Positions 20,374 to 62,577 of a stretch of DNA of 64,000 bases are shown here, in pieces (positions within the stretch are counted from its first letter, which is position 1; each line of letters begins with the position of its first letter). The stretch spans positions 46,838 to 110,837 of the forward strand of contig JBAZBK010000010.1 in assembly GCA_041671505.1 (NCBI GenBank), written 5' to 3'. A program made the translations under genes and the position numbers. This DNA is from Thermoanaerobaculia bacterium. GTDB lineage: Bacteria > Acidobacteriota > Thermoanaerobaculia > Gp7-AA8. A model generated the notes under the pieces. The model had not been told where the DNA came from. It was given only the letters and a program-made list of their open reading frames with translations, and ran no database searches.

Positions 20374-20643
20374 TGTAGCCAGGGCGTCCCGCCCTGGCCC
20401 CCTGATCCCACAAGCGTCGAATCACCACGCTACGGGGGCAAAGGCCGGAGGCCTTTGCTACAGGGCTGACGCGGTGCTCGATGCCGAAGCTCGAGTTTGC
20501 CTCATGTAGCCAGGGCGTCCCGCCCTGGCCCCCGTTCCCGGGCGAGGCTGGATCACCTCGCAACGGGGGCAAAGGCCGGAGGCCTTTGCTACAGGGACCG
20601 CATCATCCCGCCACGCGTGCAAAGGCCGGAGGCCTTTGCTACA
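20374..20643. repeat. REP/BIME-like cluster: five GTAGC-headed GC-rich hairpins in alternating orientation
   Basis: tgtagccagggcgtcccgccctggcc occurs at 20374-20399 and 20505-20530 (a 30-bp exact repeat). The reverse-orientation unit gcaaaggccggaggcctttgctaca occurs at 20438-20462, 20569-20593 and 20619-20643. Lies between convergent hsp15-like and pheS. Confidence 0.6.
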
Positions 20644-25309: not shown

Positions 25310-25386
<77 letters not shown>

Positions 25387-25407
25387 GTATTGTCAATCCA
25401 CGCTATT

Positions 25408-25484
25408 TGGTAGGCGCTATCGGACTCGAACCGATGACCTCTACCGTGTGAAGGTAGCGCTCTAACCAGCTGAGCTAAGCGCCT
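25408..25484 (-). tRNA. tRNA-Val (anticodon CAC)
   Basis: Near-identical scaffold to the adjacent tRNA. Acceptor stem AGGCGCT/AGCGCCT, anticodon loop TTCACAC, encoded CCA. Confidence 0.85.
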
Positions 25485-25582
25485 GCACTGCTGGAGCCCT
25501 CCGAAACTGAGCCTCCACCCTCGGTATTTCCGAGGGACGAGAAGCATAGGGAAGGCCGCGTGGGGAGTCAATAGGAGGATCG

Positions 25583-25696
25583 AAATGACAAATGAAGAAA
25601 TGACAAATGACAAGAGAGGAAGCGCGACCGCTGTCGGGACCCAGGGCCTGGTGGCGTTTTGTCATTTGTCATTTGTCATTTCTCATTTGTCATTCC
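25583..25696. repeat. Foldback hairpin with heptad-repeat arms (subtype A, AAATGAC/TGTCATT heptads)
   Basis: Left arm gaaatgacaaatgaagaaatgacaaatgacaa. Right arm ttgtcatttgtcatttgtcatttctcatttgtcatt (5 x TGTCATT). A ~45-nt loop contains ccagggcc. Lies between the tRNA-Val genes and lysS. Confidence 0.5.
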
Positions 25697-25772
25697 CCAG
25701 TCCTCCCCACCCCCTGGGCTACAATGCGCGCTTCCGGGGGCCCCGGAAAAATCAGGCAGCGGAGATCGCGAC

Positions 25773-27390: not shown

Positions 27391-28581
27391 GTGAACTACG
27401 AGCTCGCAATCGCACTTCGCTACCTCTGGACCGCGCGGAAGCAGCTCCATACGGCGTTCCTGTCGATCATCAGCGCACTCGGGCTCGCGGTAGGAGTCGC
27501 GACCCTGCTGATCTCGCTCGCCCTGCTCTCGGGCCTCCAGGACCGGATCAAGGAGCGGCTGATCTCCTCGAGCCCGCACGTCCTCGTCGAGCCGGTTGGC
27601 GACTTCGCCATCGACGACCGGGAGAAGGCCGAGGCGGCCTGCGCGCGCGTCGCGCGTCGCGTCGACCCGTTCGTCTCGGGGCTCGCGTGGGTCTCGAATG
27701 CGCGGAGCGAGAGCGGCCGCCCGGCGCGGCTGCGCTCCATCGACCCGTCGGCCGTCGCCAGCGCCGAGGCGCTCACACCGCGCGCCGCGGGAGGGAGCGT
27801 CGCGTGGCTCACGCGCAGCGCGGCAGCGGCGCTCCGACTTCACGAAGGAGACTCGATCGTCGTCGTCGGCCCGCGCACGCGCCTGACGCCGTTCGGCCCC
27901 GCACCCGTCTTCCGGAGATTCACCGACGTGCGGATCATCGACGCGCTTCCCGACTACGACAGCGACGCCGAGGTGCTCCTCTCGTTCGACGACGCGGCGG
28001 CGATCTTCATGACGGCAGGACGTCCCACGTCGATCGCGCTCTGGGTCGACTCGGTCGAGCGCGTCGACGAGGTTCGCGCCGCGCTCGAGGCGGCGATCCC
28101 GAACGTGACCGTGAAGACCTGGAAGGAAATCAACCGGCCTCTCTTCCTAGCCCTGCGACTGGAGAAGGTCGTGATGTTCGCGACGATCTCGCTCATCGTC
28201 CTGGTCGCGGCGCTCAACCTGATCTGCTCGCTCGCGATGCTCGTCGTCGAAAAGCGGTCGCGGATCGGCATCCTCCGGACGTTAGGCGCGACCGCGTCGT
28301 CGGTCCGGCGCATCTTCCTTCTCGTCGGGCTGATGATCGGACTCTCCGGGACGATCGCGGGCAACCTCGCCGGACTCGGGATCTCGTGGGCCGCCGACCG
28401 CTGGCACCTCGTGCCGCTCCCCGGCGACGCCTTCGGCGCCTCGCACATCCCATTCGCGATCGAGATCAATGACGTCCTGATCGTCAACGCGATCGCCGTC
28501 GTCCTCTCGATCATCGCCGCCTGGTACCCCGCCTCGATCGCCGCGAAGCTCGATCCGATTACGGCGATTCGCGAGGAATGA
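27391..28581 (+). CDS. Lipoprotein-release/MacB-type ABC transporter permease (LolC/LolE/FtsX family)
   Basis: Four TM helices with a large periplasmic loop after TM1 and a C-terminal FtsX-like domain. No adjacent LolD-like ATPase. Confidence 0.75.
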   Translation: MNYELAIALRYLWTARKQLHTAFLSIISALGLAVGVATLLISLALLSGLQDRIKERLISSSPHVLVEPVGDFAIDDREKAEAACARVARRVDPFVSGLAWVSNARSESGRPARLRSIDPSAVASAEALTPRAAGGSVAWLTRSAAAALRLHEGDSIVVVGPRTRLTPFGPAPVFRRFTDVRIIDALPDYDSDAEVLLSFDDAAAIFMTAGRPTSIALWVDSVERVDEVRAALEAAIPNVTVKTWKEINRPLFLALRLEKVVMFATISLIVLVAALNLICSLAMLVVEKRSRIGILRTLGATASSVRRIFLLVGLMIGLSGTIAGNLAGLGISWAADRWHLVPLPGDAFGASHIPFAIEINDVLIVNAIAVVLSIIAAWYPASIAAKLDPITAIREE

Positions 28582-28630
28582 CGAGATTTCGGATCGCAAA
28601 GTCAGCGAGGCTCGCTGGCTCCTGCTCACG

Positions 28631-29752
28631 TCATGGCTGAAGCTCGAGCCACCTGAAACCGAGCGCGCCCTCGTGCAGGAGCACTGTAGCCTCGGGAGCT
28701 TTATCGCCGCCCCATCGCTTGCGTTGCGTCTCGTAGGTCGATCCGGGTATCTCGAAGCGCGACCAGCCGTCGAAGAGTCGGTGGTCGCTCTCGAAGGTGA
28801 CGCCGTACCTCCTCGGTCCGCGGCGCGACTTGGACGTGTACACCGATGCGTCCTTCACCACGACGGTCTCGGGCGGCGAGCTGTCCAAGTGGATGTTGTA
28901 CCCGCGCAGCAGGACGAAGGTGAGCAGCACGCATCCCGGCGCGGTCAGCAGAAGCCACTCCAACGCCCGGCGGTGGCGGGTGGACGGGCTCGAGCGAGGC
29001 CCGACCCAGAACAGAAAGAGGACGAAGGGCAGGACGCCGGCGAACGCGCTCAGATTGAACAGCGACCACGGATCGACCAGCGGCACGGTCGCGAGCAGCA
29101 TCACTCCCAGCGCGCCGATCGCACCCGCGAGGAACAGGCCTAACCCCATCTGTCGTGACTTTGCATACAGCTTGCGACGCTCTGCCGCCTCACCGGGCGC
29201 GGGTCGCAGCTCGCGCAACGCCTTGACCAGGGGCACGAACGCCTCTGCGCTGTCTCCGCGCAGCGACTCCAGGTTCGACACTCGCCAGGTCCGCAGGTGG
29301 AGCTGGAGATAGCCGGATCCGCAATCGACCGCGCTCACTCTCGCGCCTGCGGCTGCCACCTTCGCGAGGCCGTCAAGCAGCTGTTCGCGGAGCGCGTAGT
29401 TCGATCGCAACAATTGCGCAACGGCGCCGTCGTCGTCCTCAACGTAAAACGTGTTGTCGAACGTCACGTCGCCGACGAGGTGCTCCCGCGCCAGTTGCAG
29501 CCCTTTGCCGAGGGAGTCGAACCATCCCTCCGGGCGCAACACGAATGAAACTCTCGCCGGAACCTTGAAACTGATGACTACCTTGGGGACCTGCCCGAGC
29601 TTGTTCTTCTCTTCGGCATAGAAATAGTCCTCTCCCTCGAACACGAACTTCGTCCCCGCCCCTCCCGGCATCTTGAACCGGCGGCCATGCCAGATCACGG
29701 AAATGACAAGGCAGAGCTGGACGCTGAACAGCACCCACAGATACATCGCCAA
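28631..29752 (-). CDS. Hypothetical polytopic membrane protein
   Basis: 373 aa with several hydrophobic helices and no recognisable motif. Its start abuts foldback B. Confidence 0.45.
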   Translation of the reverse strand: MAMYLWVLFSVQLCLVISVIWHGRRFKMPGGAGTKFVFEGEDYFYAEEKNKLGQVPKVVISFKVPARVSFVLRPEGWFDSLGKGLQLAREHLVGDVTFDNTFYVEDDDGAVAQLLRSNYALREQLLDGLAKVAAAGARVSAVDCGSGYLQLHLRTWRVSNLESLRGDSAEAFVPLVKALRELRPAPGEAAERRKLYAKSRQMGLGLFLAGAIGALGVMLLATVPLVDPWSLFNLSAFAGVLPFVLFLFWVGPRSSPSTRHRRALEWLLLTAPGCVLLTFVLLRGYNIHLDSSPPETVVVKDASVYTSKSRRGPRRYGVTFESDHRLFDGWSRFEIPGSTYETQRKRWGGDKAPEATVLLHEGALGFRWLELQP

Positions 29753-29793
29753 TTTTCTCCCGTTGTGCCGGAAGTATACGGCGAGATCCGGAC

Positions 29794-29931
29794 GGATTTC
29801 GGATTTCGGATTTGAAAGGCAGCCCGGGTACCTTACTGGTGTGGGCGGAGAAAGCTCATCCGAAACTCAGAGATCGCGAAGCTGGCGAAGCAAATCCGAA
29901 TTCCGAATTCCGAATTCCGAAATCCGAAATC
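29794..29931. repeat. Foldback hairpin with heptad-repeat arms (subtype B, GGATTTC/GAAATCC heptads)
   Basis: Left arm ggatttcggatttcggatttg. Right arm caaatccgaattccgaattccgaattccgaaatccgaaatc. Loop about 80 nt. Confidence 0.5.
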
Positions 29932-29934
29932 ACC

Positions 29935-30400
29935 TCAAGCGACCGCTCCCCCGTGCTCGACCGCACACGTCATCACGATCGCGGCTTCGCCGTCGGGGTA
30001 GTAACGCGGGCGCCGGTAGCTCTCGGCGAAGCCTAACGAGCGGTAGAGGGCGCGCGCGCCTTCGTTCGACTCTCGGACTTCGAGCGAGATCGACGCCACT
30101 CCGTTGAGCCGCGCGAAGGCGAAGCATTCGTCCATGAGCAGCGCGGCGATCCCGCGCCGCCGCATCGACGGGTCGACCGCGATCTTGTTGACGTGCATCT
30201 CGTCGAGGAAGAACATCGAGAAGACGTACGCGGCGAGGCCGCCCGAGGGCGCCTCCACCACAAGGTTGAAGCGCCCGATCGCATCGATCTCGCTGACGAA
30301 GAACTCGCGCCGCCACGGCGCGGGAAACGAAGCCTGCTCGAGCGCGACGACCGCGTCGAGGTCGTCGCGCGTCGCGCCCCGGATCGTCAGTCCCTCAGCC
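29935..30400 (-). CDS. rimI: Ribosomal-protein-alanine N-acetyltransferase RimI (GNAT)
   Basis: GNAT motifs (...NKIAVDPSMRRRGIAALLMDECFAFARLNGVASISLEVRESNEGARALYRSLGF). The start is probably TTG overlapping the tsaB stop. The upstream part of the ORF in the track is out of frame with tsaB. Confidence 0.7.
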
Positions 30401-31443: not shown

Positions 31444-31514
31444 CTCGCCTCCGAATTTAGTCAGCGGATTATAGGGCCAGTCGTGCCGGGAGCGCGCCCG
31501 GTGCGCTGCAACGG

Positions 31515-31632
31515 CCTGAAGAACCTGAAGTTAGAACGTAGAACGGTGAATTGAGAACCCAGAAAGGGGGACCGGGCGCCTCCTTCTTTCTGGGTTCTCA
31601 ATTCAACATTCTGCGTTCTAACTTCGGCCTTT
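31515..31632. repeat. Foldback hairpin, subtype E copy 1 (xxxxGAA heptads)
   Basis: cctgaagttagaacgtagaacggtgaattgagaacccagaaagg ... ccttctttctgggttctcaattcaacattctgcgttctaacttcgg. Copies also at 41018-41122 and 62415-62513. Confidence 0.55.
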
Positions 31633-31720
31633 GACCAGACGCTGTCGTCGCCACGCCCGTACCCTCAACAGTGGCCGAACCGGCCCGATTGGTCTAAACT
31701 GCATCAAAGATTGCACTTGG

Positions 31721-38336: not shown

Positions 38337-38590
38337 GCGGGCGGGGCAGGAAATGTGGAATCCGGAATGCGGTCCGCGGAACGAAAACCGAAATGTAGAA
38401 TGTCGAATGTTGAATGGAGAATGTAGAAAGGGGATTCGAAGACTGGGACCGGAGATTGGGAACGCACGCCGATAGCCGTGGACGCTGACTATTTCAACCG
38501 CGCGAGCGCTTCTCCATTCGACATTCTTCATTCGACATTCTTCATTTCGGTTTTCGTTCGCACTCTGCATCCCGCATTCCGCACGCCGCC
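38337..38590. repeat. 254-bp foldback element with xxGAATG heptad arms (subtype C)
   Basis: Left arm ggcggggcaggaaatgtggaatccggaatgcggtccgcggaacgaaaaccgaaatgtagaatgtcgaatgttgaatggagaatgtagaaagggg. The right arm is its imperfect reverse complement (...cttctccattcgacattcttcattcgacattcttcatttcggttttcgttcgcactctgcatcccgcattccgcacgccgcc). It fills almost the whole 336-bp divergent intergenic region. Confidence 0.55.
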
Positions 38591-38634
38591 ACCCCGCCCC
38601 CCCGGCGCTATACTCCTCCCTCACCACGTCCGCC

Positions 38635-40980: not shown

Positions 40981-41170
40981 CATCCCGATCCCGCGAAGCG
41001 GGAGAGGGATCTGCAGCTAATTCAAAGGCTGAAGTTAGAACGTAGAACGATGAATGTTGAACCCAGAAAGGCGGGTACCCGTTTCTGGGTTCAAAATTCA
41101 ACGTTCTACGTTCTAACTTCGGCCTCTTCTCCTCCCGCGTACACCTGTCGGCAATGCCGCCGCCTCTGCG
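40981..41170. mobile_element. Truncated MITE copy (M3) with a subtype-E foldback (41018-41122) inserted inside it
   Basis: catcccgatcccgcgaagcgggagagggatctgc matches the left end of M2 at 33/34 positions. After the inserted hairpin, M2-like sequence resumes (cacctgtcggca...). Confidence 0.5.
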
Positions 41171-49054: not shown

Positions 49055-49195
49055 TGACCTCCCGAAGCGAGGGAAGGAGGAGGGATCTCGCAGGCTGGCA
49101 TTCACGGGCCGCGAGACAGAGAATCTCCGACGAACCTCAACTGTACCAGCCTGCGAGATCCCTCCTCCCTCGCGCCGCTCGGTCGTCGGGATGAC
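49055..49195. mobile_element. MITE-like palindromic element, copy M4 (diverged)
   Basis: ctgacctcccgaagcgagggaaggaggagggatctcgcaggctgg ... ccagcctgcgagatccctcctccctcgcgccgctcggtcgtcgggatgac (about 35-bp arms, ends ...gggatgac). Confidence 0.4.
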
Positions 49196-50486: not shown

Positions 50487-50682
50487 GCGTCGGGCTCATT
50501 CCATGTCGCGCCGCTGAAGCGGCGCCGTTCATCGTTTGCGCCGACGTTTCCCCCGGTCTTCGACCGGGGGCTAAGTTCGGCCGTCGCTACGCGACGCAAG
50601 AACAAGAAGTAGTTGGCGCTGGCTTGTCTAACAACCAACGACCAACAACTAACAACTCACCACCACCCTCGAACAACCAACC

Positions 50683-57212: not shown

Positions 57213-57581
57213 CAGCGTTCGTCCGCGAAAACCGAAATGTCGAATGTCGAATGAGGAATGAAGAATGGAGAAACAAGGCCCGTCGCATTGACCCTTTCTT
57301 CATTCTTCATTCGACATTCGACATTCGACATTTCGAATTCTCGACCCCCTGCACCGACCTCGCCGATCGCCGAACGCACGCACGGCCCGCCTGAACAAAA
57401 CTCAGCGTTCGTCCGCGAAAACCGAAATGTCGAATGTCGAATGAGGAATGAAGAATGGAGAAACGAGGCCCGCCGCATTGCCCCTTTCTTCATTCTTCAT
57501 TCGACATTCGACATTCGACATTTCGAATTCTCGACCCCCTGCACCGACCTCGCCGATCGCCGAACGCACGCACGGCCCGCC
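57213..57581. repeat. Tandem 190-bp duplication, each unit containing a subtype C/D foldback hairpin (xxGAATG heptads)
   Basis: Unit 1 is 57213-57402 and unit 2 is 57403-~57581, near-identical. Each unit has cgaaaaccgaaatgtcgaatgtcgaatgaggaatgaagaatggagaaa ... tttcttcattcttcattcgacattcgacattcgacatttcgaattctcg. Hairpins at 57226-57343 and 57416-57533. Lies between convergent genes. Confidence 0.6.
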
Positions 57582-62308: not shown

Positions 62309-62414
62309 GGTGGGGTCACACCGAAAGATGAAAGTTTGCGGCGGGACCCCACTTCTTCATCTTCTTTTCGGTCTGACTCCAATGGCTTTCTGCTTCGAGT
62401 TAACGGAAGAGAAG

Positions 62415-62513
62415 CCGAAGTTAGAAGTTAGAACGTTGAATGTTGAATCCAGAAAGGCCTGAGCGGCTTCTTTTCTGGGTTCAAAACTCAACGTTCTAAC
62501 TTCTAACTTCAGG
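62415..62513. repeat. Foldback hairpin, subtype E copy 3
   Basis: ccgaagttagaagttagaacgttgaatgttgaatccagaaagg cctgagcggcttc ttttctgggttcaaaactcaacgttctaacttctaacttcagg. Confidence 0.55.
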
Positions 62514-62577
62514 TTTTCCTGCGTGAACTCACCGCCGTTGAGTCTGACCCAGCGGCGGAGGCGGGACGCCTCCGCCA

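Follow-up and report, generated by a model that had tools for sequence, protein, structure and literature searches.

What kind of element are the three long intergenic hairpins, here called E1, E2 and E3, whose arms consist of tandem 7-nt repeats, and how did they come to lie where they do? We addressed this question in the 64,000-nt stretch of DNA presented above (the window) and in related genomes. The explanation that we favor, with a probability of roughly 0.6, is that E1-E3 are gene-less, MITE-like copies of a cassette resembling the intervening sequences (IVS) of 23S rRNA, in which a PF05635/TIGR02436 gene is held between heptad arms.

Architecture of the hairpins

A preliminary description of this DNA had placed hairpins at three sites, and inverted arms were confirmed at each of them; no strand is assigned to these or other hairpins unless given. 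E1 (31509-31633) has arms at 31527-31571 and 31581-31625, 45 nt long and 89% complementary, that enclose a GC-rich loop of 9 nt. On the left, the terminal motif CAACGGCCTGAAG is kept from 31509; on the right, the outer part is cut short, with GGCCTTTG at 31626-31633. The neighbors of E1 are divergently oriented genes, one for cytidine deaminase on the minus strand and one for an FHA-domain protein on the plus strand. E2 (41026-41125; arms 41026-41069 and 41082-41125, 44 nt, 93% complementary, 12-nt loop) is without the outer terminal motifs. It is placed between tandem plus-strand genes, 55 nt past the stop codon of a gene for an unknown 778-aa protein and upstream of the purC promoter region, the second gene encoding SAICAR synthetase. 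E3 had been given as 62415-62513, an extent that proved too short: the full-length element covers 162 bp (62380-62541), with 59-nt core arms at 62397-62455 and 62472-62530 that are 85% complementary around a 16-nt loop. On the minus strand its ends read TCAACGGC...GCCATTG (CAAYGGC...GCCATTG), and it is homologous end to end to the 'long' subfamily (150 bp) found in JACPDH01, a relative. It is surrounded by tandem minus-strand genes, that for a PLP decarboxylase being followed by an ORF of 192 aa and an RNase D-like gene. Divergent (E1) and tandem (E2, E3) settings thus agree with the contexts first proposed; none of the three is convergent, so the convergent setting that was also proposed fits other subtypes, for example the one at 57224-57535.

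As had been claimed, GAA is fixed in the arm heptads: it occurs six times at exact 7-nt spacing in each 5' arm of E1-E3, and TTC likewise in the 3' arms. Identity between copies was slightly lower than the 85-90% initially put forward, pairwise values being 81-90% for the arms and 76-81% for the elements as a whole. The motif GAAGTTAGAAS occurred 8 times in the window versus 0.45 expected, a count reached in none of 100 shuffles. Self-similarity was specific to period 7, with 244 window positions versus 0, 3, 0 and 50 at periods 5, 6, 8 and 9. Of the 14 period-7 regions found, 12 had an inverted partner; a shuffled window gave 1 and 0. Predicted RNA folding energies of E1-E3 were -69 to -75 kcal/mol on either strand (z-scores -11.4 to -15.6) and were matched by none of 200 shuffles. 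The elements have 45-48% GC in a host genome of 66% GC.

Apart from two tRNAs, the window has no RNA genes; E1-E3 all lie between protein-coding genes, none of them in a 23S rRNA helix. At the Rfam gathering threshold, the window returned these two tRNAs only and 26 related loci returned nothing relevant, in keeping with the expectation that no Rfam family would match. In E-value mode, E1 recovered only sub-threshold look-alikes of eukaryotic miRNA precursors, which are generic for long hairpins.

Other heptad elements in the window

Several further hairpins belong to the same superfamily. A GAATGTN-heptad subtype at 38379-38559 (arms 38379-38428 and 38510-38559, 88% complementary, 81-nt loop) occupies a divergent intergenic region; in its counterpart in a related locus (L043, 6915-7085) the GAA and the 7-nt period are kept and the four variable bases (N4) differ. 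At 57224-57535, in a convergent intergenic region, two GAATGNN-type hairpins (57233-57335 and 57423-57525; arms of 41 nt, 93% complementary) stand in tandem within a duplicated unit of ~190 bp. An AAATGAC-type hairpin is located 3' of the two tRNA genes (25582-25707), and the same intergenic site is occupied by an E-type hairpin in a relative. The heptad inverted repeat at 29793-29930 has the opposite polarity, (GGATTTC)3, 76 nt and (GAATTCC/GAAATCC)5, and may be the junction of two former elements. Finally, a small GAA/TTC hairpin on the minus strand, TCAGACCGAAAAGAAGATGAAGAAGTGGGG...CAAACTTTCATCTTTCGGTGTGA, adjoins E3 at 62310-62379; its position holds another, perfect hairpin in the relative L138.

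Copies in related genomes

Matches to E elements were found in 45 genomic stretches, mostly of JACPDH01, a MAG that shares synteny with the window and has 78-90% nucleotide identity to it. That there would be more copies was borne out by 49 additional ones in related Acidobacteriota (Thermoanaerobaculia) MAGs. None of the 52 distinct copies (80-160 bp) lies inside an ORF. When 42 copies were classified by context, 24 were tandem, 11 convergent and 7 divergent; many sit 4-60 nt 3' of a stop codon, and the flanking genes have no function in common. The family comprises subfamilies with common diagnostic mismatches, and its full-length form ends CAAYGGCC...GGCCRTTG. The copies are dispersed, as had been supposed: segmental duplication was ruled out, since similarity is limited to the elements of ~100-160 bp and the flanks are unrelated. 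No match to the E pattern was found in viral contigs.

Insertion and target duplication

Empty sites, looked for as a sign of mobility, were found for two of the three window copies. E3 is missing from the same intergenic region of three relatives (L138, L134 and L135/L136), whose neighboring decarboxylase is 90-94% identical to that of the window. On the minus strand, E3 is flanked by GGGTCAGAC (62542-62550) and GAGTCAGAC (62371-62379), which match at 8 of 9 positions, where L138 has one GGATCAGAC. At least one window copy, E3, is therefore a recent insertion. The intergenic region orthologous to that of E2 is only 45 nt long and empty in JBPPMG01 (L127); its counterpart in JACPDH01 (L126) contains another heptad array, a single one. 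E1 is an old, orthologously conserved copy, whose orthologue at the same site in L043 (215-334) is more decayed.

In the long subfamily, using alignment-defined ends, flanking direct repeats (score at least 6; 6-10 bp) were present in 3 of 11 copies versus 3.6% of cross-paired controls. There was no recognizable target duplication at E1 or E2, nor at core-hairpin ends (GAAG...CTTC), for which automatic arm ends are unreliable in many copies owing to loop pairing. Insertion of the full-length form (about 150-162 bp), at least, appears to create a target duplication of 9-10 bp. Unrelated sequence was also present inside the E loops of two loci (L023 and L044), and the loop may be a mere insertion hot spot.

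The preliminary description had suggested looking for an associated transposase, RAYT-like or other; none was found linked to the E elements. Among 133 loci there was no CAATGGCCTGAAC site outside E copies, no IS with those ends and no transposase with CAATGGCC ends. The window ORFs scanned against Pfam included no Y1 transposase.

A four-helix-bundle gene between heptad arms

E1-E3 carry no PF05635 ORF, their loops being just 9-16 nt long. In one related locus, L035, the loop of an E-type hairpin encloses an ORF of 138 aa that matches PF05635 (E = 7e-19). This is the sole PF05635 gene across 355 kb of E-bearing loci, and the 64-kb window has none. The same type of cassette recurred in L130, L131 and L133 (four sources in all) and sits between imuB-like and dnaE2 genes wherever the contig covers those flanks. 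A Y1_Tnp gene fragment lies near the cassette in L130, with no sign of a connection.

The encoded protein scored 68 bits against PF05635 (cut-off 33.8) and 87 bits against TIGR02436 (cut-off 24), and its AF2 model is a four-helix bundle with a pLDDT of 89. The best Foldseek matches were 2RLD, 2GSC and the DGR protein Avd (4DWL, 8UB7), each with at least five chains (A-E) among the matches listed. No PADLOC defense model matched the protein. We know of no catalytic activity of such four-helix-bundle proteins; the protein therefore cannot alone account for the 9-bp target duplication.

Inverted repeats (score at least 15) flanked the gene at 48 of 64 testable homologous metagenome loci and at none of 259 shifted controls. 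The heptad profile at these homologous loci was G 0.85, A 0.99, A 0.93 with the rest variable, and the spacing from GAA to GAA was 7 in 111 of 145 cases. The arms abut the ORF; relative to the coding strand, the GAA arm is the 5' one at 44 of the 48 loci. Start and stop codons of the four-helix-bundle genes are embedded in the arms, and protein N-termini such as MNAERRTQNEEFRK are heptads translated. Inverted heptad arrays also surround all six plasmid-borne genes inspected, from Nostoc, Anabaena, Planktothrix, Euhalothece, Treponema and Monoglobus; the Euhalothece gene is flanked by TAACTGG/TCACTGG arrays. Heptad arms tightly wrap four-helix-bundle genes in several phyla. As they enclose PF05635 genes, the elements are to be placed beside the 23S rRNA intervening sequences and not with classical IS-derived MITEs. 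The literature search for heptamer repeats linked to four-helix-bundle/S23p genes returned a single-species observation in Coxiella only.

These findings bear on an alternative that we regard as unlikely, namely that E elements are deletion derivatives of a DDE transposon with CAATGGCC terminal repeats, that the heptads arose by slippage and that the gene in L035 is an accident. Such an origin would agree with the 9-bp duplication and terminal inverted motifs of E3, the direct repeats of the long subfamily and the foreign inserts in the loops of L023 and L044. It is at odds, however, with the contrast between four-helix-bundle genes and shifted controls, with arrays of quite different heptad sequence around all six genes in cultured organisms of other phyla, and with start and stop codons lying within arms. 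The E-type cassette, moreover, recurs in four independent sources. The 133 loci contained neither a transposase nor a second CAATGGCC-ended element, and the heptad register extends to the outer 'TIR' as well.

Conservation of arm pairing

We examined arm pairing in 46 copies. Paired cells amounted to 95.6% versus 89.5% in shuffles, and there were 60 double-sided changes versus 20, the observed value being reached in none of 500 shuffles. The GAA columns are invariant across these copies, and the N4 positions covary between arms; the arms stay complementary even as their N4 bases change. Mismatches in solo copies showed no RNA-specific bias (28 G-U versus 26 A-C), and those in gene-bearing cassettes a weak one (39 versus 24). 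As this comparison is near neutral, pairing may be kept at the DNA level.

Double-sided changes of this kind, together with extreme stability on both strands and the position of many copies shortly past a stop codon, would also be expected of REP-like RNA hairpins that the host keeps for a role, as bidirectional terminators, 3'-end stabilizers or processing sites, with mobility secondary. We consider this improbable. G-U is not in excess over A-C on the transcribed strand, and the hairpins do not have the U-tract or the terminator consensus: the scan found no consensus at E1 or E2 and one chance-level match inside the E3 loop, in line with the earlier view that these are not intrinsic terminators. 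Seven of the 42 classified copies, E1 included, lie between divergent genes. Orthologous sites in close relatives are empty or hold other subtypes, which means that no site needs its element, and a structural role leaves unexplained why GAA recurs without variation every 7 nt.

A third proposal, to which we give very little credence, treats the heptad arrays as operator-like sites of the four-helix-bundle protein of the imuB-dnaE2 SOS-mutagenesis operon, with solo hairpins putting neighboring genes under its control. The E-type gene does lie in the mutasome operon, solo hairpins of the same MAG have its arm type, and heptamer repeats of Nostoc affect recF and recO expression (bioRxiv 10.1101/2022.06.06.494920). 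Against a regulon stand flanking genes without a common function, occupancy that varies between near relatives, the target duplication of E3, and a mutasome (imuB-dnaE2) context in only 8 of 80 homologous loci. A simple terminator or promoter reading was ruled out by consensus scans and genomic contexts.

Comparison with known elements

The closest parallels are with 23S rRNA IVS. Those of Coxiella burnetii and Leptospira are AT-rich, differ in heptamer number between strains and have long been suspected of mobility (PMC4990558). In the Coxiella IVS, RNase III cuts a terminal stem of 28 bp, and tandem heptamers (three GACAGAT and one GACAGAA) stand directly ahead of the S23p ATG; a homologue in Xanthomonas is a pentameric toroid (PMC4990558). 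As in these IVS, the two ends of each E element form a long terminal stem (44-59 bp in E1-E3), and the gene-bearing relatives have a PF05635 ORF inside a long terminal inverted-repeat stem. The Coxiella heptamers are close to the CGCAGAA and CCCAGAA of E. Unlike IVS, the window elements are without an ORF, lie between protein-coding genes and not in helix 9, 25 or 45, and belong to a family with dozens of copies per genome and a target-site duplication in at least one. RNase III excision is a property of 23S rRNA IVS; the perfect duplexes of at least 40 bp in E elements would be plausible substrates for it.

Bacterial MITEs share with E a short, non-coding, multi-copy and intergenic form, terminal inverted repeats, subfamilies and, in E3, a target-site duplication. 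E elements differ in being almost wholly one heptad-built hairpin and in having no transposase-bearing parent in 133 loci; the product of their sole gene-bearing relative is a four-helix bundle of the non-catalytic kind. REPs are GC-rich sequences of 20-40 nt with a GTAG or CGTC tag, and REP/REPIN elements are mobilized by RAYT (Y1) transposases. E elements are likewise dispersed extragenic palindromes whose stem pairing is kept, but they are AT-rich, heptad-periodic and 100-160 nt long, have no such tag and have no linked RAYT, so the preliminary description was right to set them apart from canonical REPs.

That description also assigned the hairpins to foldback-type transposable elements. 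They are indeed dispersed, mobile and foldback-shaped; as a class name, 'foldback transposon' was not upheld, the likeness to that eukaryotic family being one of architecture only. Foldback (FB) transposons are eukaryotic, kilobase-scale elements with their own transposase. The inverted arms of short tandem sub-repeats resemble those of FB in shape only, in contrast to which E elements have a bacterial host, arms of about 45-65 nt and no FB transposase gene.

Among the small dispersed repeats of Nostoc described by Elhai et al. in 2008, some are said to be insertions within heptameric tandem repeats. The heptamer repeats of cyanobacteria and Beggiatoaceae (STRR; TAACTGA repeats) are described as direct arrays that lack a complementary arm (PMC4679880; bioRxiv 10.1101/2022.06.06.494920), and the protein that binds the Nostoc heptamers affecting recF/recO is not known (bioRxiv 10.1101/2022.06.06.494920). 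E units are similarly 7 nt long, tandem, intergenic and near start codons, and differ in that their arrays have a complementary arm.

Proposed origin and significance

In the IVS-like cassette that we propose as the source of E1-E3, the complete form would be a small four-helix-bundle gene, annotated as '23S rRNA intervening-sequence protein' and structurally Avd-like, between two arms. Each arm would be made of tandem 7-nt units of GAA plus four variable bases. The second arm is the reverse complement of the first, which gives 5'-(GAA-N4)n, loop, (N4-TTC)n-3' on each strand. Solo hairpins would be derived from the gene-bearing cassette or co-mobilized with it, as MITEs are with respect to their parent elements, and the conserved heptad would be the putative binding unit of a ring-shaped pentameric four-helix-bundle protein. 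By analogy with 23S rRNA IVS, a transcribed perfect duplex of at least 40 bp would be cut by RNase III, so that insertions between cistrons or within RNA helices could be tolerated.

More tentatively, the pentameric, Avd-like rings of S23p/TIGR02436 proteins might be sequence-specific partners of heptamer repeats in general, the gene with its inverted arrays might be a widespread, self-contained selfish cassette, and E1-E3 its non-autonomous copies. One subunit would then read one 7-nt unit, and the protein would spread or maintain ORF-less hairpins in trans. So broad a cassette would take in 23S IVS, insertions in operons (cas2-cas1, hsdS-hsdR and imuB-dnaE2 among them), and the STRR-type arrays of cyanobacteria.

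Three puzzles, each decades old, meet at these hairpins: the nature and spread of 23S IVS, the function of the highly abundant four-helix-bundle/S23p proteins, and the heptamer repeats together with their binder. One anatomy, a gene with a 5' heptad array and a complementary 3' array, ties IVS, S23p proteins and heptamer repeats together. It also occurs as high-copy, gene-less and insertion-polymorphic hairpins in Acidobacteriota, which gives a simple annotation rule for a repeat class that Rfam and current pipelines do not name. If it is true that the protein reads heptads as a ring, this would be a new modular system of nucleic-acid recognition.

Structure and covariation of the heptad hairpins

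The three hairpin elements of the preliminary description were borne out by sequence inspection and an inverted-repeat search, at 31509-31633 (E1), 41026-41125 (E2) and 62380-62541 (E3). E3 is longer than had been stated, and identity between copies, put there at 85-90%, was 81-90% over the arms. The inverted arms measured 45 nt in E1 (89% complementarity, 9-nt loop), 44 nt in E2 (93%, 12-nt loop) and 59 nt in E3 (85%, 16-nt loop). Each 5' arm carries GAA six times at a spacing of exactly 7 nt, with TTC equally spaced in the 3' arm, and the seed GAAGTTAGAAS occurred 8 times in the window vs 0.45 expected. When folded as RNA, either strand of the elements gave -69 to -75 kcal/mol (z-scores -11.4 to -15.6). 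Their GC content was 45-48%, compared to 65.9% for the window. Consensus scans found no terminator or promoter at E1-E3, and no Rfam family reached threshold for hairpins in the window, the related loci or E1. Self-similarity at period 7 involved 244 window positions (0, 3, 0 and 50 for periods 5, 6, 8 and 9) and was essentially confined to heptad loci; 12 of the 14 period-7 regions had an inverted partner, as opposed to 1 region and no partner in a shuffled window.

When 46 copies were aligned, the GAA columns were invariant and the next four positions (N4) varied and covaried with the opposite arm (for example, CG:34 with GC:10, GC:36 with UA:9, and UA:19 with GC:11). Paired cells amounted to 95.6% vs 89.5% in shuffles, and double-sided changes numbered 60 vs 20, a value reached by 0 of 500 shuffles. 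Sliding the arm registers out of phase reduced pairing to 26-56%. GAA is conserved at a 7-nt period, and the arms covary; the loops are short, GC-rich and without conservation. On the strand co-transcribed with neighbouring genes, G-U mismatches were as frequent as A-C (28 vs 26), and there was therefore no sign of RNA-specific selection on pairing.

Dispersal, insertion and turnover

The window is chromosomal DNA carrying housekeeping genes and is syntenic with JACPDH010000068, a contig from an Acidobacteria MAG (78-90% nucleotide identity); its purC and decarboxylase proteins had their nearest matches in Thermoanaerobaculia MAGs. Searching a collection of species-representative genomes with a degenerate 23-nt E pattern gave 45 matching stretches, about 37 of them in the related MAG JACPDH01 and the others in two Thermoanaerobaculia MAGs or as single diverged matches elsewhere. 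The BLAST comparison suggested in the preliminary description, with the window copies as queries, yielded further copies: 52 distinct ones of at least 80 nt, including the window's three, with 0 of 52 lying within high-GC3 ORFs. Flanking genes were tandem (24), convergent (11) or divergent (7), roughly as expected of random intergenic placement. Chance and segmental duplication were excluded as the source of the copies. The E elements form a family of hairpin repeats that are dispersed, intergenic and polymorphic for insertion.

A long subfamily comprises 11 copies in JACPDH01, in both orientations, with common asymmetric mismatches between the arms. Because these arm imperfections are common to the copies, they were copied from a master and convergence is ruled out. 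Similarity reaches outward to ~150 bp, ending in AATGGCCTGAAC...GTTCAGGCCATT, and the outer parts keep the heptad register. E3 aligned to this subfamily end to end, TCAACGGC...GCCATTG (minus strand).

Empty sites, which the earlier reading had named as a sign of mobility, were found: E3 is missing from three relatives and the E2 site is empty in the relative JBPPMG01. The intergenic region 3' of the PLP decarboxylase spans 269 nt in the window; in three relatives, all without E3, it spans 183, 198 and 61 nt (decarboxylase identity 94, 92 and 90%). E3 is flanked by GGGTCAGAC and GAGTCAGAC, and the closest relative has a single GGATCAGAC at the same place; the flanking repeats are a 9-bp target-site duplication for the full-length form. 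Direct repeats scoring at least 6 flanked 3 of 11 long-subfamily copies vs 3.6% of cross-paired controls (GGCTACGGGC, 10/10; GGGCTAGACG/GGGCAAGACG, 9/10; CAGCCC, 6/6), and most other flanks look like decayed duplications around a GCTAG-like target. A short GC hairpin, tggcggaggcgtcccgcctccgcc, at 62551-62575 (minus strand) directly follows the decarboxylase stop codon; unlike the adjoining E3, it is conserved in the related loci L134 and L138, and it is probably the true 3' end structure of this gene.

At the E2 site, stop codon and purC lie 255 nt apart in the window; JBPPMG01 has 45 nt there, and JACPDH01 has 136 nt, which hold one TTCGGAT heptad array. E1 has an orthologous, more decayed copy in JACPDH01, with both arms changed at heptad 2. 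A tRNA-proximal site carries an AAATGAC-type hairpin in the window and an E-type hairpin in a relative, and a hairpin at 38379-38559 is orthologous in window and relative, with the GAA phase kept and the N4 bases different. These site comparisons therefore indicate real insertions together with fast internal heptad turnover under a GAA-plus-period constraint. The tRNA genes are a tandem pair at 25313-25484 (minus strand; 69.6 and 69.4 bits), present in the relative too, and the intergenic region adjoining them is a site of heptad-hairpin turnover.

Other repeats in the window

Two tandem GAATGNN-type heptad hairpins occupy a duplicated ~190-bp unit at 57224-57535, between convergent genes, with the flanking sequence CAGCGTTCGTCCGCGAAAACCG...TCGAATTCTCGACCCCCTGCACCGACCTCGCCG likewise repeated. 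At 29793-29930, an inverted repeat of reversed polarity (TTC-type arm, 76 nt, GAA-type arm) borders a 1.4-kb stretch, 28581-29966, that could not be aligned to the syntenic relative; its 373-aa ORF had no Pfam match, and a GATTTCGGAT remnant lies at 28586-28595. Period-7 arrays without a complementary arm occur at 38560-38602 and 50623-50672 and in locus L129 at 1390-1450 (CCGCAYT-type, CAACAAC-type), and a CCGCAMY array lies upstream of purC in a relative. Non-heptad dispersed repeats were located at 49062-49182, 50508-50595 and 20378-20593; they include an inverted repeat with 37-nt arms, GGGAAGGAGGAGGGATCTCGCAGGCTGG, of which L021 holds a similar copy, another segment resembling L031, and a set of GCCAGGGCGTCCCGCCCTGGC palindromes.

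Heptad arms around four-helix-bundle genes

In locus L035 of a relative, ~340 nt split an E-type hairpin and encode a 138-aa protein matching PF05635 (23S_rRNA_IVP, E = 7e-19) and TIGR02436 ('four helix bundle protein', FHB), with the start codon within the 5' heptad arm. This cassette was present in three further independent sources (protein identity 84-100%) and lay between imuB-like and dnaE2 genes wherever flanks were on the contig (both genes in L132 and L130, imuB only in L131, dnaE2 only in L133).

Across Acidobacteriota, FHB cassettes repeatedly occupy this position in the SOS mutagenesis operon (L132, which is L035, L130, L131, L133, L049, L053, L056, L058, L080, L084, L087 and L093). 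The heptad type differs by lineage, and the dnaE2 start codon directly adjoins the 3' arm. A small conserved CTAC-N(3-6)-GTAG stem-loop that precedes the 5' arm by ~20 nt (L080, L084, L049, L093, L087) resembles GTAG-tagged REPs. Just upstream of the cluster in the metagenome contig L130, positions 1-151 hold a fragment of a PF01797 Y1 transposase (IS200/RAYT-like) gene, and no evidence tied this fragment to the hairpins. The loop of E hairpins seems to be a hot spot for insertions: in L023 (7549-7905) and L044 (2106-2375), an unrelated ~270-360-nt insert sits exactly in the apical loop, with CCACCGGCGGTTGCCGACCACCGATGACCA common to both and no ORF, Pfam or Rfam match.

The N-termini of many FHB homologues, such as MNAERRTQNEEFRK or (MKSEERS)n, represent GAA-N4 heptads translated in three frames. 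We sampled 80 homologous loci from metagenomes, of which 64 were testable. Each was scored by the best ungapped inverted repeat that its sequences immediately upstream and downstream of the gene could form; intervals shifted 700-1500 nt within the same loci (n=259) served as controls. Scores of at least 15 were obtained for 48 of 64 loci and 0 of 259 controls (maximum 14.5). Were the elements plain IS-derived MITEs into which a gene had inserted by accident, target duplication and the other inserts in E loops would be accounted for; this statistic and the occurrence of cassettes in several phyla are at odds with such an origin, which we consider unlikely.

The heptad profile of the 48 cassettes was G 0.85, A 0.99, A 0.93, T/G, T/G, N, A/T, with C almost absent, and of 145 GAA-to-GAA spacings, 111 were 7. 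The GAA arm lay 5' of the gene on the coding strand in 44 of 48. Arms abut the ORF (median distances from arm to domain-match start, -1 nt, and from stop to arm, +5.5 nt), and the stop/3'-arm junction often reads ...TCTTAA|TTC.... Arms were 15-48% GC in hosts of 43-68%. Heptads vary among cassettes (GAATTCC, GAAGGCA, GAAGTGA, AAAAGTA and others), and both arms match within each. Gene-less (solo) arms near cassettes exceeded a 7-mer sharing threshold of 0.2 with the local cassette in 33% of cases vs 5% with other cassettes.

In cultured organisms, inverted heptad arrays surrounded 6 of 6 plasmid-borne FHB genes inspected (Nostoc punctiforme, Anabaena cylindrica, Planktothrix, Euhalothece, Treponema saccharophilum and Monoglobus pectinilyticus); the arrays include non-GAA types such as TCACTGG x13 and GATTTAC. 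The architecture of the hairpins closely wraps FHB genes across phyla. Several plasmid-borne cassettes lie within operons (cas2-cas1, hsdS-hsdR). Those of A. cylindrica pANACY.01 (L139, between cas2 and cas1) and M. pectinilyticus (L142, between hsdS and hsdR, the FHB gene missing from the record's annotation) sit inside defence operons and leave the genes undisrupted.

Structure prediction made the FHB protein a four-helix bundle (pLDDT 89), and the structures that it matched best were BT_0352 (2RLD), Xcc0516 (2GSC) and Avd, the DGR accessory protein (4DWL, 8UB7), 8UB7 being a DGR ribonucleoprotein entry; at least 5 chains (A-E) each of the 2RLD, 2GSC and Avd entries were among the matches listed.

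Relation to published systems and interpretation

The Coxiella burnetii 23S rRNA intervening sequence (IVS) is 428 nt long and lies in helix 45; RNase III cleaves its 28-bp terminal stem, and AGAAGA, three tandem GACAGAT and GACAGAA precede its S23p ORF, with heptamer number strain-dependent (PMC4990558). The Xanthomonas S23p homologue is a homopentameric toroid, and IVS origin and mobility were described as unknown (PMC4990558). TAACTGA heptamer arrays occur in Beggiatoaceae, cyanobacteria and Bacteroidetes (PMC4679880), and heptamers lie upstream of Nostoc recF and recO (bioRxiv 10.1101/2022.06.06.494920); in both reports the binding factor was unidentified. In the full-text literature, mostly without subscription journals, we found neither a general gene-heptad link nor dispersed ORF-less derivatives, so an earlier description may exist.

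Our confidence in the anatomy, distribution and gene association of the heptad elements is high. With moderate confidence, we regard the solo hairpins as relatives of the cassette that are non-autonomous or have lost the ORF. Gene loss by recombination between arms is conceivable because GAA arm, TTC arm, gene, TTC arm orders exist (L067, Treponema). As the GAA phase is kept across very different host GC and the FHB gene is the only one found between arms, its protein would be the most economical candidate for a heptad reader. TRAP and HutP are precedents for ring proteins reading spaced triplets. Transcribed copies may be RNase III substrates, as with rRNA IVSs, which would explain tolerated insertion between cistrons. 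Our confidence in both the putative binding and the RNase III processing is low.

A REP-like RNA function of the hairpins would fit their placement after stop codons, and we consider it more doubtful still than a MITE origin, given the divergent contexts, empty orthologous sites and invariant phased GAA. That the hairpins are a regulon of putative binding sites for the mutasome-operon protein is possible but poorly supported. The E elements are best grouped with IVS-type and MITE-type elements. The hairpin finding is genuine and of greater interest than a generic repeat would be, and its general rule, apparently undescribed before, is that inverted heptad arrays bracket FHB (S23p) genes and multiply as gene-less hairpins.
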